Counted from the first letter of the stretch, positions 23,668-47,215 are shown. The stretch: DNA of 64,000 nt from Nitrospiraceae bacterium (GCA_050246315.1 JBFWWG010000011.1:98112-162111); one strand, 5' to 3'. The notes: a model not told the origin generated them from the sequence alone. Made by a program: numbers and translations.

Positions 23668-24024
23668 ATGCCACTCGACTATCCCTTCCAATTCGACGGC
23701 AGCGGCCGCACGGCGATGACCGGCGAGACGGACCATGTGCGCGATCTGATCGAGCAGGTCTTGTTCACGGCCCCCGGCGAGCGGGTCAATCGTCCGACGT
23801 ACGGCAGCGGTCTCACACAACTGGTATTCGCCCCCAACAGCGATGCCTTGGCCGCAGCCACGCAGGTCAGTGTGCATGGCGCGCTGCAGCAATGGCTGGG
23901 GGATTTGCTGATGGTTGAAGGAGTGGAGGTGCTCCGCGAAGACGCGGCCCTGCGCGTGACCGTCCGGTATGTCGTGAGACAAACCCAGGAACGCCGAGCG
24001 GTAGAGGTGGTGCGGACGATATGA
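23668..24024 (+). CDS. GPW/gp25 baseplate protein (Afp9-like)
   Basis: LIEQVLFTAPGERVNRPTYGSGL. Confidence 0.93.
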   Translation: MPLDYPFQFDGSGRTAMTGETDHVRDLIEQVLFTAPGERVNRPTYGSGLTQLVFAPNSDALAAATQVSVHGALQQWLGDLLMVEGVEVLREDAALRVTVRYVVRQTQERRAVEVVRTI

Positions 24025-29275: not shown

Positions 29276-31428
29276 CGCTCGATGCCGACAAACTCTACGC
29301 CTTGCTCCCGTCGATCTATCGCATTCGCGATCAGGAGAAAGGAGAGCCGCTCAAGGCCTTCTTGGCCGTGCTCGCGGAGCAGGCCGAGGTCTTGGAAGAA
29401 GATCTGTCCCAGCTCTACGACGATCAGTTTATCGAGACCTGTGCCGAATGGGTCGTGCCCTACCTGGGCGATTTGATCGGGTATCGGCGGCTACGGGGTG
29501 CGTCCTCCTCCGACGATTCGTCGCGGGCCGAGGTGGCGAATACGATTGCCTATCGACGCCGGAAGGGAACGGTGTCGATGGTCGAGCAGTTGGCCTCGGA
29601 TGTGACGGGATGGAAGGCGCGGGCGGTGGAATACTTTCAGTATGTCTGCGCGACGCAATATCTGAATCATATCCGGCCGGCCCATCAGGCGGTGGCCGAC
29701 TTGCGCCGCCAACGACAGTTGATGTGGTCGCAGACTCCATTCAACTCGCTGCCTCGCACAGTCGATGTACGATGGATCGCAACCGGCCGAGGCCGGTACA
29801 ACCTTCCGAATGTCGGTCTGTTCCTGTGGCGGCTCCGCCCCTATCGTGTCGCCAAAGGGACCGCCAAGCTCGTCAAAGAAGGCTGTTTCACGTTTCACCC
29901 CCTCGGATCAGACATGCCGCTGTTCAATCCGGGTCAAGGAGAAGAGAGCCTTACCCGGCTGGCGGAACCGGTGCACGTACCCGATCCGCTCCGCCGGAGA
30001 CCCTTGTTCGACGAACTCGAAGAACTTCGCCAAAGTCTCGCGGATGGTCGCGCGGAAGCCGCGGCCACTCGTGCCTTGTCGTGGTTTGATCCGGCGCAAC
30101 CGGTGTTTCAGATATTCAAGAACGGGACGGCCGTTCCTGTGAAGGAGATTCTGATCTGCGATTTGACCGACTGGCAACGTCCGCCGGCCCGCCGGACCTA
30201 TCGACCTCGCGGAAAGCGGCCAGGCGATGCCACGCCAGATCCGCAACTGCCGATCCAACTCGCCGTCGATCCTGTACTCGGGCGTCTGGCCTTCCCCGCG
30301 AACGTCAATTTGGCGGGGGTGGTGGTCCAGGTGACTTATTCCTTCGGATTCAGCGGCGCCTTCGGCGGAGGACCCTATCCGACCGATTCCCTCCGTGCAC
30401 CCGTGACGCGTCGCGTGACGACGGGAGGCTCGACGCTGGCGCAGGCCTTGGCGGCGGTGGGGACTGCAGATGCCGTGATTCAGATCGATGACAGTGCCAC
30501 GATCGACGGAGATCTCACGATCATGCTGGGACCCGACCAGGATCTGACGATTCAAGGCAACGAAGGCACGCGCCCCGTACTGAACGGCACGATCACCGTT
30601 GTCAGCGCCGAAGAGGCGGAACTGACCTTGCACAATCTCATGTTCGCGAAATCGGTGCGGGTGACCGGCGCGGCAGAGACGACCCTCACGATCCGGCACT
30701 GTACGCTGGCCCCGGTCGAACTCGCGCAGGACCTGTCGATGAAACCGCGTCCGGAGCCGTCCGTTCGCTGGGTCGATGCCGGAAGCCATGGGACGCTGGT
30801 GATGGATCACACGCTCAGCGGCCGTCTGGTGACGAGCCCCGATGTGTCGGTGGGGCTGTTCGACAGCGCCGTCGATGCGCTCGCGGACACGGGGGTGGCC
30901 TTGGCTGCGGCCGACGGCGGTCAGATTGCAACGGGAGAGTTGCGGCTGGTTCGTACCACGGTCATCGGTACCATTCGTGTTCGGGCTCTTGAATTGGCGG
31001 AACAGGCTCTGGTGACCGGCGCTGTCATCAGCGACCAGCAACAGCATGGGTGTGTGCGCTTTTCGTATCTCCCGTCCGACTCCCGCGTTCCTCGCCGGTA
31101 TCGTTGTCAGCCGGAATGGGCGGTGCAACGAGCGAAAGATACGGCACAGCGGCGCGATCCATCGGTTGGACCCGATGTGCTTGCGCAACTGGACGCGCGC
31201 ATTCGATCGGCCTTGCGCCCGCTGTTCACCACGAGTCGATTCGGCGAGCCGGCCTATCTCCAGCTTCACGCGTCCTGTCCGGTAGAGATTCGGACGGGGG
31301 CCGAGGATGGGTCGGAAATGGGGCTCTTCCAGAGTGTGGGGCAGGCTCAGCGCGAGGCAAACGTCCGTGCGCGCATGGAGGAGTATCTTCGGTTCGGATT
31401 GGAAAGCGGCATCTTTTACGCGACGTAG
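29272..31428 (+). CDS. Phage tail protein I-like baseplate protein (Afp12-like)
   Basis: LYALLPSIYRIRD, WVVPYLGDLIG, RRKGT, GCVRFSY, GAEDGSEMG. Confidence 0.85.
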   Translation: MTLDADKLYALLPSIYRIRDQEKGEPLKAFLAVLAEQAEVLEEDLSQLYDDQFIETCAEWVVPYLGDLIGYRRLRGASSSDDSSRAEVANTIAYRRRKGTVSMVEQLASDVTGWKARAVEYFQYVCATQYLNHIRPAHQAVADLRRQRQLMWSQTPFNSLPRTVDVRWIATGRGRYNLPNVGLFLWRLRPYRVAKGTAKLVKEGCFTFHPLGSDMPLFNPGQGEESLTRLAEPVHVPDPLRRRPLFDELEELRQSLADGRAEAAATRALSWFDPAQPVFQIFKNGTAVPVKEILICDLTDWQRPPARRTYRPRGKRPGDATPDPQLPIQLAVDPVLGRLAFPANVNLAGVVVQVTYSFGFSGAFGGGPYPTDSLRAPVTRRVTTGGSTLAQALAAVGTADAVIQIDDSATIDGDLTIMLGPDQDLTIQGNEGTRPVLNGTITVVSAEEAELTLHNLMFAKSVRVTGAAETTLTIRHCTLAPVELAQDLSMKPRPEPSVRWVDAGSHGTLVMDHTLSGRLVTSPDVSVGLFDSAVDALADTGVALAAADGGQIATGELRLVRTTVIGTIRVRALELAEQALVTGAVISDQQQHGCVRFSYLPSDSRVPRRYRCQPEWAVQRAKDTAQRRDPSVGPDVLAQLDARIRSALRPLFTTSRFGEPAYLQLHASCPVEIRTGAEDGSEMGLFQSVGQAQREANVRARMEEYLRFGLESGIFYAT

Positions 31429-31480
31429 CCTGCTCGGCGATCGAACGGGACCAGACGCAGATAACGATAGGAGACCGGTC

Positions 31481-34207
31481 ATGAAAGGCGACTTCAGTCG
31501 GCAGACCTTCGCGCAGGGCAAGCATTACAGCGCCGTCCTCCTTCAGCAGGGACGGGTGCAGCTCGATGCGGATTGGAACGAATCGCAGGCGATCCACGAG
31601 CATCGCAGCGAGACCATGACGCGAGACGTGATCGGTTTATCCGGCGCCCCGACGATCGGGCCGGGCTTCCAGATTCAAGTCGGACAGGATGGCGTCAGTC
31701 TGCTGATCGGCCGCGGACGCTACTACATCGACGGCATTCTTTGCGAGAACGACGCGGATCTCAACTATGCCGCCCAACCAGACTTGCCAGGGGTTCGGAG
31801 TGTCGTCGACGTCCTGAAGGACGGCAATGCCGTCTTCGGCCTCGTCTATCTGGAAGTGTGGAGCCGACATCTCACGGCGTTGGACGACGCCGCCATGCGC
31901 GAATCGGCGTTGGGGGGACCGGATACGACTACACGGCTCAAGACGGTGTGGCAGGTGAAAGTGCTGCCCGTGAAGACGCCCGCGTCCGGTGTGGTCGGAC
32001 CGGAGACGTTTTTCGAGGAATGGACTCAGTTGCTCGCCTCTCCAACCGGCTTGCTCTCGGCGCGCGCGAAGCCGGTGGCCGCCGGCAATAACCCCTGCAT
32101 CATCCCTCCAAGCGCAGGCTATCGCGGTCTCGAGAACCAGTTGTATCGAGTGGAGATTCATAAGGGCGGGGTGTTGGGCGACCCGGCCAAAGTGCCGACA
32201 TTCAAGTGGTCCCGCGATAACGGCACCGTCGTTACGGCCATCGAACGCTTGAGCGGTCAGGAGGTGACCGTTCGGGACCTGGGGCCGGACGAGGTGCTCG
32301 GCTTTGCGAGCGGACAGTGGGTCGAGATTATCGACGATGCGGCGGAGCTGAATCGGCTTCCGGGCCAACTCATTCAAATCGACAGCGTCAATCGCGCCAC
32401 TCGGGTGATCAAGCTGGTCTCGGCTCCGACCGTGCGAGTCGATTCGGCGACGCATCCGAAGCTGCGCCGCTGGGACAGCGTCAACGAGATGGCCATCGCG
32501 GTCCCCAGCACGAACGAGGGGTTCCTGGCGCTGGAGAACGGGCTGGAGGTGAAGTTTTCCGGCGGAAGCTTCGTGACGGGAGATTATTGGCTCATTCCCG
32601 CGCGGACGGCCATCAATGGAGAGACAGGAACGATCGAATGGCCGTTCACCGCCCCGCAACTGCCGCATGGTTCCGAGCGGCACTTTTGTCGCCTGGCTCT
32701 GCTCCAGCGGAATCCTCAGACGAACACCCTCACGTCGATCGACGGCCGCAAGCTGTTTCTTCCCTTGACGGGAATCGGGGCGATGCACGTAGTAGGTACG
32801 AGCTGGCGTCACGACGACGTGATGACCCTTCAGGCCATCCAAGATACCGGCATCCAGATCACGCTGGATATGATCCCCTCCCACCCGTCGCGGGACGTGC
32901 CCGGCGCGCCGGACGCCATCAATCCCGGCACGATGATAGTCACGCTCGAAACGCCGGCGATCCCATCGACCGATGCCGCTGCGAATCCCCCTCGGGTCGA
33001 AACGATTCTCAGCGGGTCCATGACCGTGTCCAACAACAGCCTGGTCTGGAAACCCGATCTCCAGTCCTTCCTGAAATTGATGGAGGGGCCGCCGGCCTTG
33101 AGGGTCGTGCGCGTCACGCTCAAGGGTCACAAGATCTGGTCGTTTCAAGCGGGACAGATTTTCTACCTGGATGGGCAAGCGTTTGCCGGACCCGGGCTCC
33201 GGAGCGACGGTCAGACCCCGCGGACGGACCTGCTGTTTCCATCGGGGGCTGGAGTGCGGGCGAGCGATTTCGAGAGCTGGTTCTATTTGCCGGCGCAAAT
33301 CGTCCCGCCGCCGCCCAATCTCGTCGGGTTCACCGTGAATCCCAACATCCTGCAAGCCGGGCAAGCCGTCTCTCTCACCGTGACGCTGGATCGTGTTGCC
33401 CCGGCAGGCGGCGTAACCATCTCGATTGCCAAGACCATGCTCTCGGGGACGGATCCTGTTCCCTCCCTGGCGTCGATCACTATCGCGGAAGGGCAGGCCG
33501 TGGTGACGGTCGCTGTTCCAACAAGAGCGAACGTGGCGGCATCGCTCTCGCTCAAGGCGACCTTACGGCAGACGGAGCTGACGGCCAATTTGACCGTGCA
33601 GGTCGTCGCGATCACGATTGCGCCGTCGACCACGACTCTGTTCGTCAACGGCAGCGTGCAATTGACGGCCTCGGTGACCGGAGCGGCTCAGACCGGAGCG
33701 TCCTTTGCTATCACAGAGGGAGTTCGAGGCGGGGCTCTGGCTCTCACCGGGAAGAACACCGCCACCTATACCGCCTCCGTGGCGCAACCGGGGGTGTACC
33801 ACGTCGTCGCCACGAGTCTTGCCGATTCCACCAAGACCGCGGTCGCCACGATCACCGTGATTAAGAAGGTCAAGGACGGCAAGGAAGGGAAGGAACTGGT
33901 CAAGGAACAGTCCGAGGTCCCCAAGGCGATTCGTGACAACGTGGTGGTCAAAGCTCGGGAGGTCGTGACACCGAAGATTCGCGAGACGTCCAAGGTAACA
34001 GACGTGATTCGTTCCCGCGGTCTTGAGGGAGTATCCTCGACAGAGGAGTCAGGGGAGGAAGGCGGCGGAGCGGGCACGGAGGCATCCGGAGGGAAGGCCT
34101 TCATCAAACCGGAAGAACGGCCGCCGGTGGGGGAACCGCAGCGCGGAGCGCGCACGCCGTCGCGCCGAAAATCGAAACGGAAACCGAAGGCCGGGGGACC
34201 GGGGTGA
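31481..34207 (+). CDS. DUF6519-type eCIS tail fibre with Ig-like domains and K/E-rich C-terminal tail
   Basis: AGGAG RBS; MKGDFSR...QQGRVQLDADWNE, GYRGLENQLYRVEIH, FKWSRDNG, GDYWLIPART; Ig-like ITIAPSTTTL...ATITV. Confidence 0.88.
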   Translation: MKGDFSRQTFAQGKHYSAVLLQQGRVQLDADWNESQAIHEHRSETMTRDVIGLSGAPTIGPGFQIQVGQDGVSLLIGRGRYYIDGILCENDADLNYAAQPDLPGVRSVVDVLKDGNAVFGLVYLEVWSRHLTALDDAAMRESALGGPDTTTRLKTVWQVKVLPVKTPASGVVGPETFFEEWTQLLASPTGLLSARAKPVAAGNNPCIIPPSAGYRGLENQLYRVEIHKGGVLGDPAKVPTFKWSRDNGTVVTAIERLSGQEVTVRDLGPDEVLGFASGQWVEIIDDAAELNRLPGQLIQIDSVNRATRVIKLVSAPTVRVDSATHPKLRRWDSVNEMAIAVPSTNEGFLALENGLEVKFSGGSFVTGDYWLIPARTAINGETGTIEWPFTAPQLPHGSERHFCRLALLQRNPQTNTLTSIDGRKLFLPLTGIGAMHVVGTSWRHDDVMTLQAIQDTGIQITLDMIPSHPSRDVPGAPDAINPGTMIVTLETPAIPSTDAAANPPRVETILSGSMTVSNNSLVWKPDLQSFLKLMEGPPALRVVRVTLKGHKIWSFQAGQIFYLDGQAFAGPGLRSDGQTPRTDLLFPSGAGVRASDFESWFYLPAQIVPPPPNLVGFTVNPNILQAGQAVSLTVTLDRVAPAGGVTISIAKTMLSGTDPVPSLASITIAEGQAVVTVAVPTRANVAASLSLKATLRQTELTANLTVQVVAITIAPSTTTLFVNGSVQLTASVTGAAQTGASFAITEGVRGGALALTGKNTATYTASVAQPGVYHVVATSLADSTKTAVATITVIKKVKDGKEGKELVKEQSEVPKAIRDNVVVKAREVVTPKIRETSKVTDVIRSRGLEGVSSTEESGEEGGGAGTEASGGKAFIKPEERPPVGEPQRGARTPSRRKSKRKPKAGGPG

Positions 34208-35917: not shown

Positions 35918-36327
35918 TTCCCTCCTCCATTTGTAATCCCGACTGCTGGAATTCACGACAGACGTTCATGATCGTGCCTCTGTCTGCGTATCCGATGAGA
36001 TACAGGCGTATTGCTTTGGATACAGGGTCATTGGCTCTGGACGAAAGTCCTTCTACGCGGTTCCGAAATCTCGTGACCGTTCAAGTCACACTCGTTGGCT
36101 CGATTGAAATTTGAACCCCTGCGCCTATGGCGAGACGAACGGCAGGAACAAGACTGCTGTGGAATAAGTTTTGCTAGCTAGGTGGTTCCTATCTCTTCGA
36201 ATCAAAACCGATTGGACATTCGAAAAGTCATAATTAGGTCTCGCGTTGTCGCGCCGAAGGGAGTAGACTTCCATCTGTTTTCGCCCGCCCACCCCATCAG
36301 GAATGTCCGGACAGGACATCGGCACCC

Positions 36328-37002
36328 ATGAGCGACCATGTGATTCGTGTCGGCATCCTGCATCGCCATCGTCTCCTGCGCGAAAGTCTGGCCTGTTATC
36401 TAGGACAGCGCGAGACGATCTCGGTTGTGTATTCGACATCCGGATGGGAGTTGGACGAAGCGGAGTTGGCTGCGCTCAATCCGAATGTGATTTTGCTCGA
36501 ATGTGACCCGGCTTCGCGAGAGCCGATGCAGGCGGCGAAACGGCTTCATGCCTCTGTCCCGGAGGCGAAACTGTTAATCATGGACGTGCCGGAGACCGAG
36601 ACCGATATCCTCTCCTGTATCGAGGACGCGCGCGCCTCGGGCTATCTGCTCCGGGATTCGTCGGCCGAAGACGTGCTGAGGGCGGTGCAGGCGCTGGCAA
36701 GGGGAGAAACGCTCTGTTCTCCCCGGATCGCCCATCTGTTGTTTTCACGAGTCTCTTCGTTGGCGCCGCGCGACCGCGGATCCGGTATCGACGACGACGC
36801 GGGCCTCACAAGACGGGAACGGGAGATCATCGGCTTGATCGAACGGGGGCTTTGCAACAAGGAGATCGCCGTCCATTTGTGTATCGAGGTGCAGACGGTC
36901 AAGAACCACGTCCACAATATCCTCGACAAGCTCCAGTTGCAGGATCGCCGGGAAGCCGCTCGCTACGCCAGGGAACGGGGTTTGGTGGGCAGGGGACATT
37001 AA
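36328..37002 (+). CDS. NarL/LuxR family response regulator with atypical receiver
   Basis: LTRREREIIGLIERGLCNKEIA...QTVKNHVHNILDKL LuxR HTH. Confidence 0.93.
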   Translation: MSDHVIRVGILHRHRLLRESLACYLGQRETISVVYSTSGWELDEAELAALNPNVILLECDPASREPMQAAKRLHASVPEAKLLIMDVPETETDILSCIEDARASGYLLRDSSAEDVLRAVQALARGETLCSPRIAHLLFSRVSSLAPRDRGSGIDDDAGLTRREREIIGLIERGLCNKEIAVHLCIEVQTVKNHVHNILDKLQLQDRREAARYARERGLVGRGH

Positions 37003-37087
37003 CCTGCCGTGCGTCGCTGAAATCAAGCTGTTTGGCCGGATGAATTCCAGCGGCGATGATTGAACTGAAAAACAGCCTTTGTCGGCG

Positions 37088-37972
37088 TCATCCGCGCTTG
37101 AATGCACGAATCATCGCCAGATCATGTTTGGCTGAGGCATAGTCGGTTCCATCTTGTTTGCCCAATGCAATTGCCCGTCGGATGAAGAACTCTGCCGCGT
37201 CGAGATCGCGTTCAAATATCAGTATGCTCCCCAGACCATTCAATGCCGAGTAATCGTTGGGGTTGCCAAAGAGTGCCTGGATGAACCAACGTTCAGCCCG
37301 TACGAGCAATCGGTCTTTGGGCGGACGGCCAGCCTGGATCGCCGCCCAATGCTTTAGCATGTACGCATTCTTGTCGTGATACCCTGCGAGGTTCAGCACC
37401 ATCGGTTCCAGCGGCCACATTTTCTTGGCATCAGACGTCACACTCTCGACCTGTCGATGCTTCTTCTTGCCTGTCCGAAGATCCCTGTTTCCCAGGCAAT
37501 CAGTCACGGCGCTTTGCCCCTCAACGATTCGCTGTGTCGTCTGCCGGAGTTCCCTGCTTGGACTGCTCATAACGGGCGGAACCTCGTTTGCCGCATCCGG
37601 AGACGTGCGAACGGCGCGGCAGAGCTGATCAATGGAAGCGGTGTTCCGGCGTTGCAGATTCACGTAAATCGTGTTCTGGAGGAAATAGGGTAACGGTGTG
37701 TGATCGCGCACACAGGTCACAATGAATCGGTTCAGATGAAAGGCGGTCAGCACTTCAGCCGCAACCCATCGAGATCTTGCCGCGGCCTTCGACCAGAGAA
37801 GGATCAGCACGCGGCTGCTCCTGATCGCACCGTGCAGTTCCTTTCGCAACAAGACTCCCAGGCGGATCTCTGAACGGTCCAACCAAACCTTGAGGCCGTC
37901 CTTCTCCAGGCGTGCTTCGATCTGGGCGGCCACCGCAGCGTCCTTCGAGGCGTGGCTTATGAACGCATCCAT
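37088..37972 (-). CDS. TIR domain (TIR_2) protein with C-terminal TPR
   Basis: AFISHASKD, VWLD, SRWVAAEV (catalytic Glu present); ALNGLGSIL...RRAIAL TPR. Confidence 0.88.
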   Translation of the reverse strand: MDAFISHASKDAAVAAQIEARLEKDGLKVWLDRSEIRLGVLLRKELHGAIRSSRVLILLWSKAAARSRWVAAEVLTAFHLNRFIVTCVRDHTPLPYFLQNTIYVNLQRRNTASIDQLCRAVRTSPDAANEVPPVMSSPSRELRQTTQRIVEGQSAVTDCLGNRDLRTGKKKHRQVESVTSDAKKMWPLEPMVLNLAGYHDKNAYMLKHWAAIQAGRPPKDRLLVRAERWFIQALFGNPNDYSALNGLGSILIFERDLDAAEFFIRRAIALGKQDGTDYASAKHDLAMIRAFKRG

Positions 37973-38103
37973 TTGGCGACTCTCCTCTGATTCACGGCTA
38001 CTCTCCTGCCTTTCGCGCGCGTAACAGTGCCGGGATTGATTTCGGTAACCTCGTGCCGAAAATGGTATGAGGCGACCTGCCCATGATCGTGGTCGCGGTC
38101 CTT

Positions 38104-39225
38104 TTACTCAAATCCCTGAAATTGCTCTGCGCGAAGTTTTTCTTTCGCCACGGCTTGGCCGACCCGCTGCAATTGGTCGATGTGCTCCACCGAGTCGAGC
38201 TTTTGGACGTCTTTCGGCTCGATGTCCGTGAGACCAAGGGCGTCGAGGCCGGTTCTGGAGAGTTCGGCGTTGTAGCGCATGTAGGTGAAGAGCTTGGGCG
38301 AGACCGCGCTGCGCGCCCCGATGAGATCGCCCACCTCTCGGTCGAGTGGATCGCCGGCCAGGCATTTGCCGAAGACACGGCACAACAGGTCTTGCTCATT
38401 CAGGGCGGCAAACATCAGCGCCGAAGGGATCGAGCCGGCGTTGTACAGGAGATTCATCTCTCCCGGCTCCAGATCCTTGTTGGCGTCGGGACTGGTCCCG
38501 GTGCCGACCGAAACAATGAGCATCTTATCTTCGCCGGCCGGCCAATTGAGGTTGTACGGTCCGGTTGTGGCCATGATGAACGATTGAAACGATGGATTGT
38601 TGTAGGGCGTAATGCCACCGTCGACGAAAATGAATTCCTGCTGGCCGACCTTGACGACTTCGGGCGGAAAGTAGACCGGCGCTGCCGTACTGGCACGGAC
38701 CAATTGCCAGAGGGGCAGGTTCAGATTGCAGTCCGTTCTCGCCCGATCGTTGTATTTGGCCTTGGGATTGTTCCAGATGGGCCAGGGCGAATCCGTGGTG
38801 GCATTGCGCATGACCATCATCAGGACTGTCCGTAGGCGGTCGCTCCCCAAGGTCGTATCGGCCCCGAGTTCTGCTTCCAGCTTATCGGCAAGGCCCTCGT
38901 CATCGTATTTGTACTTGAATCGCTTAAGCAGAAAGGCTTTGTCGAACATCTGGGCGCCGCTCGTGACATAAAAGTCTCGAATCCGGCTGACCGACATCCC
39001 GAGCGAGAGGCAGGCGGCCAGGATGGCGCCGGTGCTGGTGCCGGCGACAAAGTCAAAGTAATCGGCCAGCACGAAGTTCCGTTGCTTCTCGGGTTTCTGG
39101 AAGGAGCGTAGGAGGTCCTCGATGGCGCCGAGGATCTCCACCGTGATCATCCCGCGGATGCCGCCGCCGTCAAGCGCCAGAATCTTCTTGGGTCCCGGTT
39201 GCTGGATGCGTTCCGCCAGTGTCAT
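38104..39225 (-). CDS. Patatin-like phospholipase
   Basis: ILALDGGGIRG, GTSTG nucleophile, ASTAAPVYF, FVDGG. Confidence 0.95.
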   Translation of the reverse strand: MTLAERIQQPGPKKILALDGGGIRGMITVEILGAIEDLLRSFQKPEKQRNFVLADYFDFVAGTSTGAILAACLSLGMSVSRIRDFYVTSGAQMFDKAFLLKRFKYKYDDEGLADKLEAELGADTTLGSDRLRTVLMMVMRNATTDSPWPIWNNPKAKYNDRARTDCNLNLPLWQLVRASTAAPVYFPPEVVKVGQQEFIFVDGGITPYNNPSFQSFIMATTGPYNLNWPAGEDKMLIVSVGTGTSPDANKDLEPGEMNLLYNAGSIPSALMFAALNEQDLLCRVFGKCLAGDPLDREVGDLIGARSAVSPKLFTYMRYNAELSRTGLDALGLTDIEPKDVQKLDSVEHIDQLQRVGQAVAKEKLRAEQFQGFE

Positions 39226-39247
39226 GTCATTCCCCTTTCCGTCGGTG

Positions 39248-41242
39248 TCAGAAGCCGAACGCCTCGTTGGTATCGATGATGATCGTCTTGGCGCCTCGCG
39301 CTTTGGCCTGCTGGATCATGTCCTCGGTGCCGCCGGGGCCGTCGCCTTGTGCTCTATTCCAGAGGGCAATCAGCGTCACACGAGCCGCCCCTTTCGCCAG
39401 GGCATGGTAGAGCATCCACAGATTATTCCGATTCCAGATGGTGTACTTCTCCCTTGCCCGTAACCAGCGAGGAAGCTCCCTCGATTCTGCCAGCACGGTG
39501 ACCGGCAGCCGATCATGGAGAGAATTGAAACGATCCACCCACTCCGGGCCGGCGGATTGCACCGAGGCCACGACAAACTGATCTCGGGGCAGGGCGAGAT
39601 AGAGGCGGCTGGGAATGCCGAGTTCGCTGCACACTTCATGGAACAGGATGTCGCCGCCGGAGGCCCCTCCGGCGATGCCGAGCGCCACATGGCCCAGGCG
39701 CTGACGCTCTTGGGTCACGATCGCATGGATGCGCTGTCGAGCGATGGATTCTTTGTCCGCCGGAAAGCGAGGGGTGGCTCGACCGGGGTTGTCGATGCGG
39801 TGACCGGTAAAGAGCAACACGCCGCCGGACATGTGAGACACTGTGTGAGGGGGAGGCGCAGCCGGGAGCATCGAAAGAACCTTGGCGACATTGTCGTTGA
39901 ACAGGCCAAGGTCTTGGTAGAGGGTCAGTTGACTGCGAACGGCATCGACGGCGAAATCCGGCGCCCCGGCCAGCGCGTCCTGATAGGCGCTGGCCGCGCG
40001 GGCGGGTCGTGTGGTCGTCAGGCAACAGTGGTCGGCCTGGCTGATCTTGGCCCAGAGCAGTTGTTCTGTGTCTCCCTCACGTTGAAGTCGAGGCAAGGCG
40101 GCTTGCAGCGAAAAGGCCACGGTGTGACCGAGCGCCAATCTGTCCGCTTCGGCCTCAGCCAAGGCCCGTCGGGCGTCGTCGTCGCGGTCGAAGCGCTCGG
40201 CCCAGACGTCGGGGAGGGCGGTCGCCAGTCCGGTGAGGATGGCCGACAGCGCCAGCGCATTCAAGCCGGAATAGAAATGATTGAGGTCTTCGTGAAAGGC
40301 CCCGGAGTAGGCCTCCAAGGATTCCCGCAAGAAGGGAGAGCGGAGCGCCTCGGCCCGTCGTTGGTCCGGCGGGGCCGATTGCCAGAGGCTGCGCCAGCGT
40401 TCCTTGGCATTTCGGCCGAGCAGCGCATGAATCTCGGCCCGGTCCCAGCCCCGGAGCCGAGCGGATTGCAGCGCGCGCTGAATCGCTTGGTCTGACCGAG
40501 CGAGGTCGTTGAGACGCTGATACACCGTGGCCAACTGCACATTGGCCTCCAAGTCCAATGGATCGATCTTGCGAATGGCTTCCCAGGTTTCTCTCGCGCC
40601 CTCGAAGGCCTTCAATTTGAATTGCGCCCGTCCGACGACACGCAGGCCTTCGTACTCCCATTCCAGGCCCGAGACTTCCGAAGCCAGGAGTTCGAGGTCT
40701 CCCGGGACTTTGGCGGCGAGCGCACGATCGACCTCTTCGCGGAAGTCCCGTGGAACAGGCAGAAAGTGGGACCGATCTTGCTCCGTGAGGCCGGGCAACA
40801 GATTGAACACGGGGCTGTCCGGCGCTTCGGACTCGAGGGTTTGTCGTAGGGCGGCCACAAGCAGATCCATCTTGGCGGCGGGAGCCTTGGCGTCGTAGGT
40901 GAAGTATCGATCCGTTTGAAGGTCGAACGGGTAGCGGTCGCCCTCCGCGCGGATGAGAAACGTCCGCTTGTGGCGCAAGGCATGACGGATGCCGAGTTCG
41001 TAGAACACATTGGCATTGTGGATGGAGAGGTCGGCGACGACGAGGTCGGCCGTCAAGAGTCGCTGGAACATATCTACCCGGATGTTGCCCTGCCGAAGGA
41101 TGTCGAGGGTGGTACGCCCATCCACCCCGCATTGCGAGAGGGCCGGAGCGATCAACTCCCGCTCGATCACATCGAAGTCGATCGGTTCCTTAGCGAGGGT
41201 TTCTTTGAGTCCGAAGGGACGAATGATAAACGCGCGCATCAC
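39248..41242 (-). CDS. DUF4071 (deoxyribohydrolase-like/TRAF-binding) + TPR + SLOG-like domain protein
   Basis: AFIIRPFG, ADLVVADLSIHNANVFYELGIRHA, FYSGLNAL; C-terminal LLFTGHRID, GGASGGDILFHE, ALWN...GPGGTEDM. Confidence 0.8.
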   Translation of the reverse strand: MMRAFIIRPFGLKETLAKEPIDFDVIERELIAPALSQCGVDGRTTLDILRQGNIRVDMFQRLLTADLVVADLSIHNANVFYELGIRHALRHKRTFLIRAEGDRYPFDLQTDRYFTYDAKAPAAKMDLLVAALRQTLESEAPDSPVFNLLPGLTEQDRSHFLPVPRDFREEVDRALAAKVPGDLELLASEVSGLEWEYEGLRVVGRAQFKLKAFEGARETWEAIRKIDPLDLEANVQLATVYQRLNDLARSDQAIQRALQSARLRGWDRAEIHALLGRNAKERWRSLWQSAPPDQRRAEALRSPFLRESLEAYSGAFHEDLNHFYSGLNALALSAILTGLATALPDVWAERFDRDDDARRALAEAEADRLALGHTVAFSLQAALPRLQREGDTEQLLWAKISQADHCCLTTTRPARAASAYQDALAGAPDFAVDAVRSQLTLYQDLGLFNDNVAKVLSMLPAAPPPHTVSHMSGGVLLFTGHRIDNPGRATPRFPADKESIARQRIHAIVTQERQRLGHVALGIAGGASGGDILFHEVCSELGIPSRLYLALPRDQFVVASVQSAGPEWVDRFNSLHDRLPVTVLAESRELPRWLRAREKYTIWNRNNLWMLYHALAKGAARVTLIALWNRAQGDGPGGTEDMIQQAKARGAKTIIIDTNEAFGF

Positions 41243-41272
41243 CGGTCTCCTTGAGTGTGGCGTCCCGTTAGT

Positions 41273-41305
41273 CCGTTCGCCCTGAGCCGGTCGAAGGGCG
41301 AACGG
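41273..41305. repeat. REP-like palindrome
   Basis: ccgttcgccct-gagccggtcga-agggcgaacgg; related to the internal palindrome of the 49.5-kb element. Confidence 0.65.
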
Positions 41306-41377
41306 ATTATCACGGGACTTTCAGGGATAGAGCACGAGTGTACTGCGTCTGACGTTTCCTTACCTTCATTCCAAGAC

Positions 41378-41513
41378 CGTCATTCCCGGGCCGCTGTTCG
41401 TCATTCTCGCGCCCCTGTTCGTCATTCCCGCGAATGCGGGAATCCAGGTCAGAAAAGCGGAAATCCAGATTATAAAAAAGACCGCGCGGATTCCGGCTCA
41501 AGCCCGGAATGAC
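41378..41513. repeat. GTCATTCCCG-type palindromic repeat cluster
   Basis: Three cgtcattc units at 21-bp spacing, cgtcattcccgcgaatgcgggaatcc, and a distal inverted ggattccggctcaagcccggaatgac. Confidence 0.7.
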
Positions 41514-41549
41514 AATGAAAGCCAAGGACCCAGTTGAGGCGGCGTTGCC

Positions 41550-43445
41550 TCATGAGGCCCCTCCCTTGACCTTCTCGCGCAAGGCTTGCAGGAACCGCCG
41601 GTCCTCGGGCGAAAGGTGCAGGCCTCGCTTGTCGATGGCTGACAGGATGTCAAAGGCCTGCTTCCAGTAGGCCTGTGCTTCGTTGGCCTTCTCCCGGCGT
41701 TCAGCGAGGCTGGCTAGCTTCACATACGAGACGCTGAGGTCGCGCTGCCAGTCGGTGTTGCCGGGGTCGCTCGTCGCCAGAGTCTTCCGAATGGTCAGGC
41801 TGTCGCGGTAGGCCTGCGCGGCCTCCTCCAGCTTTCCTTGCTTGACCGCCACGTCGCCGAGTCGGTCGTAGGAGACGCTGAGGTCGCGCTGCCAGTCGGT
41901 GTTGCCGGGGTCGCTCGTCGCCAGTTGCTTCGCAATGGTCAGGCTGTCGCGGTAGGCCTGCGCGGCCTCCTCCAGCTTTCCTTGCTTGACCGCCACGTCG
42001 CCGAGCTTGTTATAGGAGACGCTGAGGTCGCGCTGCCAGTCGGTGTTGCCGGGGTCGCTCGTCGCCAGTTGCTTCGCAATGGTCAGGCTGTCGCGGTAGG
42101 CCTGCGCGGCCTCCTCCAGCTTTCCTTGCCTGACCGCCACGTCGCCGAGCTTGTTATAGGAGACGCTGAGGTCGCGCTGCCAGTCGGTGTTGCGCGGGTC
42201 GGAGCCGGTGAGGCGCTGGGCGAGGCGGTGCGCTTCTTCATAGTCTCGCCTGGCCTCGGCCAGGGTGGTACGGACCCTGGCGAGGTCGCCCTGGTCCAGG
42301 AGGAACCAGAGGTTGGCGTGAAGCGCGTCCGGCCAGTCCGGCTCGATGGCGAGGATTTCATTGTAATGGGTGCGGGCCTCGGTGGCCTGACCCTTAGCTT
42401 GGTACAGGGCGGCGGTCCGAAGGAGCGGCTGAAGGTCGGCGCGGTTGCGCTCGCGCGCTGTTGCCGTGCGGGCGCGAACGGTTTGGACGATCGCGTGCCG
42501 CTGGGTTCCCATATAGGCGATGGCCTCGTCGACGCCCTGTTCGGCGAGGATGCGGGTCATTTCCTGAAACACGGTGGTCGCCGTGCCGCGTCCCTCGATC
42601 TCGGCGAAGGACGCAGACAATTCCTCGATGCGGGATAACCTCATGGTCTGCGCGTGGTCGGCAGCTTCGCGCAGCTCCTGACGTTTCTTCCAGTCAGTCG
42701 ATTTGTCGGCCTCGGCCAGTTCTCGACGATGGGTTTCCTCTGCGGTCTGTTGAAGATGCGCGCGGATTCGTTCGGTGTTCACGACGGTGGACTGCTTCAC
42801 TTCGGTGGAGAGACTCTGGTAGATCCACCACCCACCGCCGCCAAGGATGATCAGGCCCAAAAGAATTGCGATGAGAGTCCTGGCGACTCGACGGTCTCTG
42901 TCCTCGCCACGCTTCCGCAACCAGCCCAACTCATCACGCAGTCGGAGGACGATGTTTTGCAACTCGGTGGGATTGTTCGCAGTGTGGCGGAGGTGATTTT
43001 CCGCTTTGAGGCGTGCGACGTACTTCTGTTGCAGCGTACGCCGTTCGGCTTGGTACCCAGCAGGATCGGGGTGGTTGGCTTCATGTGGCAGATCGAGCTG
43101 GGTGACCGGCTTATCACAGGAGAAGTCTGCCTCGATGACTGTGACCCAGGTTTTTTTCTTGTTCTCGATCGCATAGAGCAACTCGAACTGGGTGTAGGAG
43201 AGGCGGCCGTATAATGGATCGACGGTCGGCGGCTCGGCTCCATACCCCTGGCCGACAAGTTGGATCACCCCTTCGCAGGAGTCGAGTTGCTCACGCAGCC
43301 ACTGGCGGAGTTCGCCGTGGCCGGTGGGAAAATCATCTTGGGAGACTGGGTCGAATCCGAGCGTGCGGACCGTGGCGGCCACGTCCTTGCGTGCGGTTCG
43401 CAGTTCCTCGCTGACCGCTGAAAGAAACAGACGAGGTCGGTCCAT
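41550..43445 (-). CDS. DUF4062 domain + transmembrane helix + TPR repeat protein
   Basis: RLFLSAVSEELRTAR...VGQGYG...SYTQFELLYA; TM LIAILLGLIILGGGGWWIY; 48-aa TPR-like repeats. Confidence 0.85.
   Translation of the reverse strand: MDRPRLFLSAVSEELRTARKDVAATVRTLGFDPVSQDDFPTGHGELRQWLREQLDSCEGVIQLVGQGYGAEPPTVDPLYGRLSYTQFELLYAIENKKKTWVTVIEADFSCDKPVTQLDLPHEANHPDPAGYQAERRTLQQKYVARLKAENHLRHTANNPTELQNIVLRLRDELGWLRKRGEDRDRRVARTLIAILLGLIILGGGGWWIYQSLSTEVKQSTVVNTERIRAHLQQTAEETHRRELAEADKSTDWKKRQELREAADHAQTMRLSRIEELSASFAEIEGRGTATTVFQEMTRILAEQGVDEAIAYMGTQRHAIVQTVRARTATARERNRADLQPLLRTAALYQAKGQATEARTHYNEILAIEPDWPDALHANLWFLLDQGDLARVRTTLAEARRDYEEAHRLAQRLTGSDPRNTDWQRDLSVSYNKLGDVAVRQGKLEEAAQAYRDSLTIAKQLATSDPGNTDWQRDLSVSYNKLGDVAVKQGKLEEAAQAYRDSLTIAKQLATSDPGNTDWQRDLSVSYDRLGDVAVKQGKLEEAAQAYRDSLTIRKTLATSDPGNTDWQRDLSVSYVKLASLAERREKANEAQAYWKQAFDILSAIDKRGLHLSPEDRRFLQALREKVKGGAS
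41728..42192. repeat. Near-identical 144-bp intragenic tandem repeat (~3.2 copies)
   Basis: gagacgctgaggtcgcgctgccagtcggtgttg recurs at 41728, 41872, 42016 and 42160. Confidence 0.93.
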
Positions 43446-43471
43446 GAGGGTCGGCGTCTCCTTCGTGGGGT

Positions 43472-44362
43472 TTAGGCGTGTGTTGCGACCGGCTCAATGT
43501 ACTTGTTCGACACCCACCCCTCAAGGTCGCCCTGGCCGTCCACTTCCACTTTGGTCCAGCGTGCGCCCTTTTCCAGGACGAGCAGGACGGTGCCTTTGCG
43601 CAGGGCCGGCGCGGACGGTTCATATTCCGTCCCGGGACCCTTGCGTATGTTCAGCGAGTCGGCAGTGACCCGGCACCGTTCGTCTGCTTCGACCTTCCGG
43701 CCCAGGGCGCGGGATCGGATCGATTCCAGCGGGAAGGCCGGCCCCGGATCGCGCTTGCGCTCCGGCGCGATGTCCTCATGGCCGAGCACATCCGAGAGCC
43801 CATATGCCTTGACGAGCAGGGAAGCCAGGTCCAGCGCCGTCTCGATCTGCTGCTCCGTGTAGGTGTGCCACCAGGAGAGTTCCGGCTCGAGCTTATGCTT
43901 CGCTTGCACGGCTTGGCTCGACGGGTAGGTCGTGCCGAACCAGGCCGTGAGCTTGTCTCCCTGCTTGGTGAGCCGGCCCGGGTTATCCATTTCGATGCCG
44001 ATGGCGTATTCGTTGAGTCCGGTCAGGCCCTCCCAATGGCTGATTCCCGCATGCCAGGTTTTGATATTGAAGGGCGCCAGTTGCGTGATGGCGCCGTCGC
44101 GGCCCACGACCAGATGGGCCGAGGCCTGCGCGGCGGGGTTGCAGAGCCAGTCGCAGGAGTCCTTGGCGCTCCGGCCGGCTGTGTAATGAAAAATGAGATA
44201 ACGCGGCGTGATGATGCCGCCACGGTTGGGCGTGTCTCGAAAGGCGATATTCGGGCCGACCAATCGATGATCGCGGCAGGTGAGCGTGTCCTGCGTATCG
44301 GTCGCGGGCGACCTGGTCCGAGGTGAACGGCGCGACGTTCGCTGCTTGCGAGTTCTCGGCAT
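43472..44362 (-). CDS. N-acetylmuramoyl-L-alanine amidase (Amidase_2) with C-terminal SH3b domain
   Basis: IFHYTA, ASAHLVV, WHAG, IGIE, LGHEDIAPERKRDPG; LNIRKGPG...GWVSNKYI; no signal peptide. Confidence 0.92.
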   Translation of the reverse strand: MPRTRKQRTSRRSPRTRSPATDTQDTLTCRDHRLVGPNIAFRDTPNRGGIITPRYLIFHYTAGRSAKDSCDWLCNPAAQASAHLVVGRDGAITQLAPFNIKTWHAGISHWEGLTGLNEYAIGIEMDNPGRLTKQGDKLTAWFGTTYPSSQAVQAKHKLEPELSWWHTYTEQQIETALDLASLLVKAYGLSDVLGHEDIAPERKRDPGPAFPLESIRSRALGRKVEADERCRVTADSLNIRKGPGTEYEPSAPALRKGTVLLVLEKGARWTKVEVDGQGDLEGWVSNKYIEPVATHA

Positions 44363-44563
44363 GGGGCGCTCCTCTTATGTCCTATGCCTGGCGGGGTGAC
44401 AGGGTAACACAACTATCTTGCTGAGGCTCATGTACCAAGAGGCTCAGGGGCGACCGCAACCATTTACAGTCCAAGCAATCGTCGTACCAACGTATTCGGC
44501 CGTGAGGCTCTTGTTTCAAACCGTATCGAATTCGATGCAGATTCGCGGGCGGCGGAGCGGCGA

Positions 44564-45886
44564 TCACTTGTGGTTGGAAGACTGTCGAAGCGCCTCGTGC
44601 CGCCGTCCGAGATAGAGACCGTTCACGAGCCACAGTCCTGCGATCGGCATGGCCGCGAGCGCCAGTTCGGAGATGGAAAAGCCCGCCGCTTGCAGCGTTG
44701 TCGCCACCCAACTACTGGCCATGTCCCCTCCTCGGTGCACCACCGTGTCGATGACGTTCTTGGCCTGATATTTTTCTTCCTTCGTTACCACCGTAAAAAG
44801 GGTTTCGCGCGTCGGCTTCGTAATGGCAAATTCACCGGATCGGCGCAGGATGCCGAAGGCCACCAGCACCGGCAGGATCGGCGCCGCGCTGAAGACCCCG
44901 AACCCGATCAGGTTGAAGGCCGGGACCGCTGCGAGCAGAGCCGTGACTCCGAGTCCTGTCAGGAGCCGGCCGGTCAGCAGCACCTGGGCGCAGACGGTCA
45001 GGCTGTTCACGGCAAAATCCACCAGGGCGAAGAGCCTCGTCCGTTCTTCGGGATTGCCCAATACTTGCGGCACGAGGACCATCTGTTGGCTGTAGAGCAA
45101 CGTGGAGAGCACGGAGTAACCAGCCAGGTAGAGGCAGATCAATAGGAGATAGCGGGACTGGACAATCTTGGTGATGCCGACCAGGAGACCGGGCGGGGTA
45201 CTGGACGTAGTCTCCAAGCTGTGGCGGTCCCCCCGCTCGGCCTGATCGGCCGCTCGCGCCGGGGCGCTCGTCAAGGCGAAGAAACAGGCCAAAGACGCGA
45301 GCAGCAACGAGATCGACACCAAGAGCAGGGGGGCAATCCCGATGATCGGCACCGCCAGCGCAGTAAGGAGGGGGCCGGCTATCGCTCCGGCGCTCCCGCC
45401 TGCCGCGATGAAGCCGAACAGGCGGCGAGCGGCCTCCGTGGAATAGAGATCCGCCATCACGCTCCAAAAGACGGAGACGACGAACAGGTTGAACACGCTG
45501 ACCCAAACGAAAAACACGGGTGCGACGACCGAGCGAGGCATCTCCAGCGTCAGCGCGAGATAGAACAAGAACAGGTTCGACGCGAAAAACAGATAGACCG
45601 TGGGAATGAGCCGGCGTACCGGCAGCCGACCGGCCAGCCAGCCGAAGAGCGGGACCAGCGCGAGCATCGAAACAAACACGGCCGAGAACATCCAGGGTAG
45701 GGTCCGCATGCCGGACTGGACGCCCATCTCATCTCTGATAGGCCGGAGGACGTAGTAGGACGCGAGCAGCGTGAAAAAATAAAGGAACGACAGGAGCAGC
45801 GCGCGTACTTCAACAGCCTCGACCGACACGAGCCGGCGCAGCAGCGACAGGAGGGAAGCAGGGGGCGGAGCGGAGGTCTGGGTCAT
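44564..45886 (-). CDS. NTP/NDP exchange (TLC/ADP-ATP translocase-like) MFS transporter
   Basis: YYVLRPIRDEMG, FVWVSVFNLFVVSVFWS, ARRLFGFIAAGG, KPTRETLF, KYQAKNVIDTVVHRGGD. Confidence 0.85.
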   Translation of the reverse strand: MTQTSAPPPASLLSLLRRLVSVEAVEVRALLLSFLYFFTLLASYYVLRPIRDEMGVQSGMRTLPWMFSAVFVSMLALVPLFGWLAGRLPVRRLIPTVYLFFASNLFLFYLALTLEMPRSVVAPVFFVWVSVFNLFVVSVFWSVMADLYSTEAARRLFGFIAAGGSAGAIAGPLLTALAVPIIGIAPLLLVSISLLLASLACFFALTSAPARAADQAERGDRHSLETTSSTPPGLLVGITKIVQSRYLLLICLYLAGYSVLSTLLYSQQMVLVPQVLGNPEERTRLFALVDFAVNSLTVCAQVLLTGRLLTGLGVTALLAAVPAFNLIGFGVFSAAPILPVLVAFGILRRSGEFAITKPTRETLFTVVTKEEKYQAKNVIDTVVHRGGDMASSWVATTLQAAGFSISELALAAMPIAGLWLVNGLYLGRRHEALRQSSNHK

Positions 45887-46200
45887 TGAGGAGGCAGACT
45901 GTCGGCTGACTATACCCGGATCGGAAAGACCGAGGCAACGTGCGCCAGCACCTGTATCGAGTCGGATACGGTCAGCGTATCGGAAAAGATACGGCGCACT
46001 CGATCGGGCTCCATGAGGAATCATGCGTTTGTGCGGAGTTTCCAGGCGCCATCTTGTGGCCGGGCGTTTGCAGGATTATCCTTTCAGGTGATCTCACCGG
46101 TGACATCGCCTGCACGGACGGATCATCCGAGGACGTCCAGGTGCTACGGTGTTTCCCGCGCCAATCCCGATACGCAGGTGCGTCCAGAAAGGGAAAAGTC

Positions 46201-47151
46201 ATGATCACAACAGATCCAACCGAACTTGAGCAGATGAAAACGCTGGGCGAACTGACCGAGCAAGCCCGAGCCATTCTCCGCGACATGGAGGAAGCCGATC
46301 GGGCTCCTATCGAGAGAACCGTCCACGATTATGCCGGACGAACGGGATACTCCGCGCAATTTCTCCATGCGTTCGAAGTGCCTCATCCGACACCGACCGG
46401 AGTCCGAGCACGGGATGTCGCCCCGCTGCTGAGCGGATCCGGAACGGAACTCAAGTACGAACATTTCTCGGTCGTGATATCGAAGTCTCGACGACTCGCT
46501 CTCTATGTCGCCTGCAACATCGACGGCAAGCGTTCTCAAAAAATCAAACGCGGCCGGGATCGCTGGAGTTTCGATCCGAGGATGGATCGGCGGTATCAGG
46601 TCGGGGAGGACCTCTACGCGGGGAATGAGTTGGATCGCGGTCACTTGGTGCGGCGCGAAGATCCGGTGTGGGGTCAGAAGGACGAGGCGGCCATCGCAAA
46701 CGACGACACCTTTCACTACACCAACTGTTCTCCGCAGCATGAAAAGTTCAATCAACAGACCTGGCTGGGCCTCGAAGACTACATTTTGCAGAACAGTCGG
46801 GCACACAAGTTGAGAGTCACCGTGTTCACGGGGCCGATCTTCCGCGATGACGATCCGGAGTATCGCGGTGTGCGCCTTCCGCGCGAATATTGGAAGGTGG
46901 TGGCAGTCGTCTCGGACGGACGGAATTCCGCCACGGCCTATATGATCAGTCAATCGGAATTACTCGAACAGCTCCGGGCCTTCGGGTTCGGCCGCTACAA
47001 GACCTATCAGGTGAGTATCGGCCAGATCGAGAGATTGGCGAACCTGGACTTCGGACTCTTGAGGCAATTTGACGGCTTTACCACCGAGGAAGGACGTACC
47101 AGACGAGCAATGCGGACCGAGATCCGCTCCTGGAAAGACATCCGGATCTGA
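46201..47151 (+). CDS. DNA/RNA non-specific endonuclease (NucA/EndoG family)
   Basis: LDRGHLVRR, TFHYTNCSPQ, WLGLEDY, VFTGP, YWKV; no signal peptide. Confidence 0.93.
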   Translation: MITTDPTELEQMKTLGELTEQARAILRDMEEADRAPIERTVHDYAGRTGYSAQFLHAFEVPHPTPTGVRARDVAPLLSGSGTELKYEHFSVVISKSRRLALYVACNIDGKRSQKIKRGRDRWSFDPRMDRRYQVGEDLYAGNELDRGHLVRREDPVWGQKDEAAIANDDTFHYTNCSPQHEKFNQQTWLGLEDYILQNSRAHKLRVTVFTGPIFRDDDPEYRGVRLPREYWKVVAVVSDGRNSATAYMISQSELLEQLRAFGFGRYKTYQVSIGQIERLANLDFGLLRQFDGFTTEEGRTRRAMRTEIRSWKDIRI

Positions 47152-47215
47152 CGGCCGGCCTGCCGCCGGTCGTTGAATGAGTCACCCGCTTTCACTCTTG
47201 CGCAGGAGGACCGCC

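Follow-up and report, generated by a model that had tools for sequence, protein, structure and literature searches.

The core formed by a deoxyribohydrolase (DRHyd) domain and a TPR-S domain has only recently been tied to anti-phage signalling based on cyclic ADP-ribose (cADPR). According to a preprint by Liu et al., BcTpr of the Bacillus cereus BcTir/Tpr system joins a MilB-like glycosidase (residues 1–189) to TPRs, requires N82 and E86 for NAD+ depletion, formation of a cADPR isomer and defence, and binds cADPR with a Kd of 1.9 μM (10.1101/2023.05.26.542521). Its set of 78 Tpr operons derives from Burroughs & Aravind 2020 and includes 28 Tir-Tpr, 5 YspA-Tpr and 4 Patatin-Tpr operons, whose domains can be fused; the patatin and SLOG forms are only listed there. 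A second preprint, by Yirmiya et al., defines type VIII Thoeris as a TIR protein together with ThsI, a ‘CMP hydrolase’ plus TPR protein as predicted by Aravind (10.64898/2025.12.03.692087). There, canonical cADPR is the product of the TIR protein and proves toxic when supplied to cells that carry the system, and ThsH, a SLATT effector, is sometimes encoded in the same operon as ThsI. Here, we describe a related locus in a 64,000-nt stretch of DNA from Nitrospiraceae bacterium GCA_050246315.1 (JBFWWG010000011.1:98112-162111; hereafter the window, within which all positions are counted). Gene A of this locus encodes a DRHyd-like head, a TPR-S middle region and a SLOG tail, and gene B a patatin-like phospholipase. 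The two form a conserved unit of which A is the constant component. We consider it reasonably probable (about 0.6) that they constitute a two-gene immune module of the abortive-infection type and represent a variant of the DUF4071 (BcTpr/ThsI-like) family with a fused SLOG domain and a coupled patatin.

The initial annotation had described three co-oriented genes, A, B and C, separated by gaps of 22 bp and ~130 bp, with no CD-NTase or SIR2 visible. This layout is correct. All three open reading frames (ORFs) lie on the minus strand, with gaps of 22 bp between A and B (39226–39247) and of 131 bp between B and C (37973–38103), and a scan of A, B, C and 15 flanking ORFs found neither CD-NTase nor SIR2 domains. 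An ATG one codon inside gene A, at 41239, yields MRAF, the start common to its homologues, and is preceded by an AAGGAG ribosome-binding site.

The model of A computed with AlphaFold2 on 32 homologues has a predicted local distance difference test score (pLDDT) of 88.5 and a predicted template modelling score (pTM) of 0.81; the head folded alone (residues 2–165) has a pLDDT of 86.7. The best fold match of the head is the nucleoside 2-deoxyribosyltransferase 6evs_B (Z of 12.0, root mean square deviation [rmsd] of 2.8 Å for 120 residues), followed by MilB 4ohr_A (Z of 11.9, rmsd of 3.0 Å for 132 residues), and Foldseek also identified the nucleoside 2-deoxyribosyltransferase 8pqt_B (1.8e-5). TIR domains are matched with Z of 11.3 (MyD88), 10.2 (SARM1) and 9.3 (ThsB). 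The motif N76-A-N78-V-F-Y-E82-L-G is invariant among the 32 homologues, and N78 and E82 are likewise invariant in a set of 26 sequences; N76, N78 and E82 are the putative catalytic residues. The N-x-N-x-x-x-E spacing is shared with BcTpr, a comparison that concerns motif spacing and not the BcTpr sequence. Residues 40–119 match the PADLOC model PDLC00733 for a CBASS TIR effector (7.8e-8), the sole PADLOC match of A.

The middle region matches the Pfam family TPR-S (PF20308) at 1.3e-14, and its model aligns with the central regulatory region of ASK1 (5ulm_B) with a Z of 14.4 for 246 residues. Residues 6–465, which include the head, can be superposed onto residues 95–553 of ASK1 (8qgy_B) with a Z of 13.6 and an rmsd of 11.5 Å for 383 residues, and this structure ranks third in Foldseek. 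TPR matches at such Z are common, and the ASK1 match counts mainly because both the head and the TPRs are spanned. The head and TPR region of A resembles the N-terminal regulatory region of human ASK1 (MAP3K5, PF13281), although the whole-region rmsd is large, A falls below PF13281, and ASK1 carries a kinase instead of a SLOG domain or patatin. This resemblance corresponds to the bacterial origin of the ASK1 regulatory region proposed by Aravind's group (PMC8195603). Burroughs 2015 reportedly drew this link as well.

The tail is a member of the SLOG superfamily, with the Rossmannoid fold of the YpsA/DprA/LOG kind and invariant glycine-rich GGD and GGT loops. Its closest fold match is YpsA (2nx2; Z of 17.5 and rmsd of 2.9 Å for 160 of 178 residues), with further matches to DprA (3uqz, Z of 12.4) and ShosA (8zva, Z of 12.1). 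Invariant residues in the 32 sequences include T479-G-H481, D484, R488, R492, E512, G529-G-D531, R605, D634 and G637-G-T639. No Pfam SLOG-family model was matched by A, no NCBIfam model was matched by A, and a search of solved structures by sequence, with A and with its profile, returned only TPR proteins. These fold matches, the TPR-S match and the invariant motifs agree with the composition assigned to A in the initial annotation, a deoxyribohydrolase-like NANVFYELG domain, TPRs and a SLOG-like domain. The initial annotation also gave A the label DUF4071. Residues 4–347 of A match 80 plasmid records at 28–34% identity, mostly annotated as ‘TRAFs-binding domain-containing protein’ (PF13281), and a Rhizobium DUF4071 protein is aligned by BLASTP at 30% identity (E of 6e-38), with the NANVFYELG motif common to both. 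However, A itself has no match to PF13281 (MAP3K_TRAF_bd, formerly DUF4071) at E ≤ 0.1, even though plasmid homologues match this family (8.3e-39, 1.6e-7).

Gene B matches the Pfam Patatin family (PF01734) at 1.8e-24, its score of 87.4 bits lying well above the threshold of 27.7. As the initial annotation had read from GTSTG and DGG, the catalytic motifs are intact: GGGxRG, G62-T-S64-T-G66 and D202-G-G are all invariant in 28 patatins, so that the Ser64/Asp202 dyad is preserved, and the C-terminal tail is conserved (F369, F372). The catalytic domain also matches the CBASS phospholipase models of PADLOC (PDLC00758, 7.7e-44) and NCBIfam (CBASS_lipase, 1.3e-34), the latter with a score of 119.9, below the cutoff of 200, and with the C-terminal third unmatched. 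A complex prediction for B with residues 161–664 of A, shortened since A and B together exceed 1000 residues, scored 0.00 in a run without controls, a value that is neutral as to contact between them.

The linkage of A and B was examined across genomes. The search with A gave 3699 proteins at E ≤ 1e-3 among 8000 candidates scored; the relatives among the matches listed are similar over their full length at 57–63% identity, with three close relatives at 85–98%. Species genomes of GTDB contained 412 stretches matching A, of which 80 loci (designated by numbers with the prefix L) were kept for neighbourhood counts. In 53 of the 80 loci (tblastn), a patatin gene is the same-strand neighbour of A, with a median gap of ~38 bp, and these loci span Acidobacteriota, Nitrospirales, Myxococcota, Proteobacteria and others. 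B is placed upstream of A in ~50 loci, one of these placements being an artefact of the script, and L001, L065 and the window have it downstream; the pair has therefore survived a change of gene order. When the 1669 neighbouring ORFs were clustered, patatin was the only broad neighbour family of A (52/80 loci), and the next two clusters, judged from their coordinates, are alternative-frame ORFs inside the patatin gene. Distances between A proteins and between B proteins are correlated (Mantel r of 0.68 for 47 pairs, reached in 0 of 999 permutations), a figure overstated by the non-independence of related genomes.

Two other associations were considered and set aside. TPR-S-patatin fusion proteins of ~950 aa lie upstream of some dyads and are separate genes, having only the TPR-S region in common with A. 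A link to peptidoglycan hydrolases, prompted by the amidase that adjoins A in L001 and by a muramidase in L082, was dropped as neither family recurs in the neighbour clustering. The fusions stand directly upstream of the dyads in L004, L037, L041 and L053; L042 and L050 contain a ParA-nSTAND1-TPR-S-patatin form (~1450 aa) with a TIR gene before it.

Loci in which A-like genes have no patatin show that other partners can take its place: TIR_2 in L021, L025, L029, L030, L047, L050 and L051, SLATT_1 in L055 and L060, DUF4062 in L025 and L063, and a calcineurin-like gene together with a trypsin-TPR-S gene in L026. In L021, L029 and L047, A-like domains are fused behind ParA-nSTAND1 (~1200 aa), and in L038, P0048 and P0093 a C-terminal TIR_2 is fused to A. 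One Nitrospiraceae genus (L100–L106) carries a paralogue of A (30–38% identical) at a single site beside a Kup transporter gene, where the partner varies from a patatin (L100) to a ~460-aa TIR_2 protein (L101, L102, L106) or TIR-nSTAND1 (L103). The ~460-aa TIR_2 protein of L106 also has a weak SIR2_2 match. Among plasmids, an E. coli IncP plasmid carries its DUF4071 gene together with SLATT and two ThsB_TIR genes, the Rhizobium DUF4071 gene whose product was aligned above lies with SLATT and ThsB_TIR, and another Rhizobium plasmid has a patatin gene before its DUF4071 gene. The distribution is patchy and marked by transfer: A is present in 12 of 401 Nitrospirota genomes, all of one family and at 30–45% identity, and the listed relatives in other phyla, at 57–63%, are closer to the window protein than the Nitrospirota ones. 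Such a picture, with one constant component whose death-type partners are swapped, scattered among genomes and most closely related to proteins of other phyla, is typical of immune modules.

Compared with the systems described above, A has the domain order of type VIII Thoeris, a MilB-type domain followed by TPR(-S). By the published description, ThsI is matched by residues 1–470 of A and by the plasmid DUF4071 proteins. However, A has an extra SLOG tail of 190 aa, and its conserved partner is a patatin and not a TIR protein: gene C or its like adjoins A in 1 of 80 loci, and, with flanks of up to 8 kb on either side considered, any TIR ORF is present at 20 of 80. BcTpr similarly differs in its length of 415 aa, the lack of a SLOG domain and its TIR partner. 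Type I Thoeris (ThsA, SIR2-SLOG, with the TIR protein ThsB) also combines an NAD-consuming domain and SLOG in one protein and has a TIR gene nearby, as here; in contrast, A lacks SIR2, contains a TPR-S middle region and a SLOG domain closest to YpsA by fold, and has no TIR as its conserved partner. With CapV of type I CBASS, B shares the match of its catalytic domain to phospholipase models, but its score stays under the CBASS_lipase cutoff, its C-terminal third is unmatched, and a CD-NTase was not found in the ORFs scanned. No system-specific model for A or for the plasmid DUF4071 proteins exists in PADLOC 2.0 or NCBIfam, and no tested system combining a patatin with SLOG, TPR-S or DUF4071 was found in the literature searched, which was thin on subscription journals, beyond the BcTir/Tpr and ThsI preprints. 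The view that the locus is distinct from the named systems survives in that no such model claims A, and is weakened in that the head and TPR-S region of A match BcTpr and ThsI by description.

Building on the domain anatomy, the conserved residues and the linkage of A and B, we propose the following biochemistry, order of events and defence phenotype. A would act as the sensor and regulator, with its TPR-S region holding the MilB-like NAD+/nucleotide N-glycosidase head shut. A phage product or a cADPR-type nucleotide would release the head, which, through N78 and E82, may then cleave NAD+, resulting both in depletion and in a cyclic product derived from ADP-ribose. The SLOG tail could bind or process this product, for feed-forward activation or for assembly. 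Patatin B (Ser64/Asp202) would be the executioner: once activated, through the nucleotide or through contact, it would degrade membrane phospholipid. In the genome of the window, C could additionally feed a TIR-made nucleotide to A, although the family does not need C.

Several points weigh against an immune module of this kind. Twenty-seven of the 80 A loci have no adjacent patatin, of which 8 have <1.2 kb of flank on one side. B of the window is closest to B of L065, L018 and L012, whereas A of the window is closest to A of L008, L016 and L022, so the partners have sometimes been exchanged between lineages. For the modelled head, DRHyd and TIR folds score within 1 Z unit of each other, a tie. 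The equivalence of DUF4071 proteins with ThsI and BcTpr is inferred from published descriptions and not from their sequences, and, as the preprints disagree on the signal maker (BcTpr or the TIR protein), signalling through A could run in either direction. The SLOG-fused, patatin-coupled form is so far a computational prediction, made in outline before, Patatin-Tpr and YspA-Tpr assemblies having been listed previously. In favour of the module, contigs of RNA libraries cover A, B and C in all four libraries examined (three studies), and two of them bridge the junction of A and B (X16 record 13, X17 record 22). These contigs register presence only, giving no transcript ends, strand or level, and their uncovered parts carry no meaning; they are no proof of transcription or of a single transcript, since DNA carry-over is possible. 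A scan of positions 36300–44600 is uninformative for operon structure, as its 1 promoter-like and 7 terminator-like sites match the 1.2 and 7.2 obtained in shuffles. A weak hairpin 3′ of gene B and a hairpin with a T-run 3′ of gene U, a further gene described below, were noted by eye.

A more specific version of the two-gene reading, which we regard as tentative and not very probable, is that A and B are a self-contained relative of Thoeris that dispenses with TIR: the head or the SLOG tail of A would itself make a cADPR-type nucleotide from NAD+, and this nucleotide would gate the patatin.

It is in our view doubtful that A, B and C together form one Thoeris-like system, in which phage sensing and production of a cADPR-type signal would fall to the TIR protein C, with A (ThsI-like, with a SLOG receptor) and B as the effectors. 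C matches TIR_2 at 6.4e-22 (78.8 bits against a cutoff of 28), has weak TPR similarity and matches TIR models in PADLOC; W69 and E73, the W..E motif previously noted as intact, are invariant in 31 homologues. C lies on the same strand 131 bp downstream of B with its catalytic Glu intact, one RNA-library contig (X16 record 11) spans the junction of B and C, and type VIII Thoeris pairs a TIR with ThsI (10.64898/2025.12.03.692087). Relatives with A-TIR_2 fusions or adjacent TIR_2 genes, and the TIR ORFs in the flanks of a quarter of the loci, point the same way. However, the one locus in which a C-type protein adjoins A is L001, whose A is 98% identical to that of the window; two other tblastn matches of C near A cover the TIR domain only, at 29–36% identity, and the TIR domain of C shares only 25% identity with the TIR fused to A in L038. 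Separate TIR-ParA/STAND systems, fitting those described in a further preprint (10.64898/2026.10.19.760177), account for many of the TIR genes near A.

The family of C also argues against this reading. It comprises 614 proteins at E ≤ 1e-5, and the 120 homologues listed are ~295 aa long (260–348) and 53–86% identical, the window protein itself excepted. Among 80 metagenome loci with C homologues at 47–86% identity, 39 of them with >1 kb upstream, A is found beside C once, as a 30-codon remnant, and a patatin once, on the opposite strand and at 36% identity. C has no conserved partner in these loci, as no neighbour family is common to more than 9 of the 80. In the 400 other Nitrospirota genomes, C matches only TIR domains (11 genomes, residues ~2–128, 33–39% identity), and the syntenic relative L135 keeps C without A and B. 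Thus, C is a neighbour outside the A–B dyad, with a family of its own. The sensor/signal/phospholipase operon of the initial annotation, for which conservation of the gene neighbourhood had been named as a check, is accordingly reduced from three genes to two: A and B co-occur across phyla as an immune-type module, and C occurs without them.

It is improbable that A and B are non-immune and serve housekeeping or stress functions instead, with a nucleotide sensor of the LOG/SLOG kind regulating a membrane-remodelling lipase. The SLOG/LOG and patatin families include metabolic members, and the full-length identity of 50–63% that A maintains between phyla implies strong purifying constraint. Its patchy distribution, with 12 of 401 genomes in the phylum and the closest relatives outside it, argues against such a circuit, as do the swapped partners, the replaceable hotspot (see below) and the neighbours rich in TIR, STAND, SLATT and DUF4062 genes. 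In addition, homologues of the head and TPR-S region were reported to be anti-phage in both preprints (10.1101/2023.05.26.542521, 10.64898/2025.12.03.692087). Finally, it is very improbable that the genes are cargo or accessories of a contractile-injection (phage-tail-like) locus filling window positions 1–34207: Baseplate_J, Tail_P2_I and DUF6519 genes do lie within 3–7 kb, but these occupy the other strand and are separated from A, B and C by a LuxR gene and two further genes, and tail-like gene families recur neither beside A nor beside C in the respective 80 loci.

Table 1. Features of the locus, in window coordinates.
Feature	Position	Strand	Description
Gene A	39248–41242	minus	664 aa from GTG (663 from ATG at 41239)
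Gene A head	40793–41239	minus	Residues 2–150; deoxyribosyltransferase/MilB/TIR-like Rossmannoid domain
Gene A middle	39842–40756	minus	Residues 163–467; TPR-S / TPR solenoid
Gene A tail	39254–39829	minus	Residues 472–663; SLOG domain, YpsA-like
Gene B	38104–39225	minus	373-aa patatin-like phospholipase, conserved partner of gene A
Mosaic tract within B	38400–39010	minus	~600 nt, codons ~72–275
Gene C	37088–37972	minus	294-aa TIR_2 + TPR-like protein, stand-alone family
Region upstream of A	41243–41549	minus	Repeats, inverted repeat, hairpin and T-run after the stop of U
Gene U	41550–43445	minus	631-aa DUF4062 (TIR-like) + TPR, inside the indel

The surroundings of the dyad (Table 1) are those of a variable, replaceable defence hotspot. 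Positions 41256–43486 are a 2.2-kb indel that is absent from L001, and one contig from a public run passes straight from 41252 to 43487, skipping the indel, so one strain there is without it. Gene U, which the indel contains, is an independent module separate from A and B. The mosaic tract within B has 71–74% nucleotide identity to L001, compared with 95–100% in the flanking 150-nt windows, and is consistent with the dominant-strain coverage break in the RNA-library contigs. Judging from these identities, it is probably a recombination tract, which points to allele exchange inside the effector gene. The relative L135 is syntenic at ~83% nucleotide identity and retains the MFS gene, the amidase, C and the LuxR gene. 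Its slot for A and B (L135:3600-6900) encodes two other proteins, one of 360 aa that matches no Pfam family and one of 462 aa with TIR_2 at its C-terminus; A and B persist only as their final 30 and 20 codons, respectively, and a remnant of U also flanks the slot.

Upstream of A, three direct repeats of CGTCATTCCCG are spaced 21 nt apart (41378–41430), and an inverted repeat with 15-nt arms (41269–41309) stands just before the ribosome-binding site of A. A further 21-nt tandem pair is present upstream of A (within 41269–41474), at the edge of the indel. Outside the hotspot, positions 24021–34207 (probably from near 1; the scan began at 24021) contain plus-strand genes with contractile-injection or phage-tail-like domains, including two Baseplate_J proteins (852 and 899 aa), Tail_P2_I and DUF6519/DUF4815. 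Just past the hotspot, at 45940–49348 on the plus strand, a gene for a DNA/RNA non-specific endonuclease (403 aa) precedes one for a P-domain subtilase (723 aa).

The SLOG-fused, patatin-coupled form is very abundant, mostly in soil Acidobacteriota, and has no dedicated TIR partner. It raises the questions of whether a DRHyd or SLOG domain can replace TIR as the signal maker, whether NAD-derived nucleotides can switch on patatin lipases, and what the ancestor of the ASK1 regulatory region sensed. If A itself makes the nucleotide that gates B, without TIR, B would be the first phospholipase to answer to an NAD-derived messenger and not to a CBASS cyclic oligonucleotide. As the head and TPRs of A would then be the bacterial counterpart of the ASK1 region, ASK-family kinases would be predicted to sense an NAD-derived nucleotide. 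The locus is, in addition, a clean natural example of module turnover in a defence hotspot, with the indel carrying U, the mosaic patatin and the replacement of A and B in L135.

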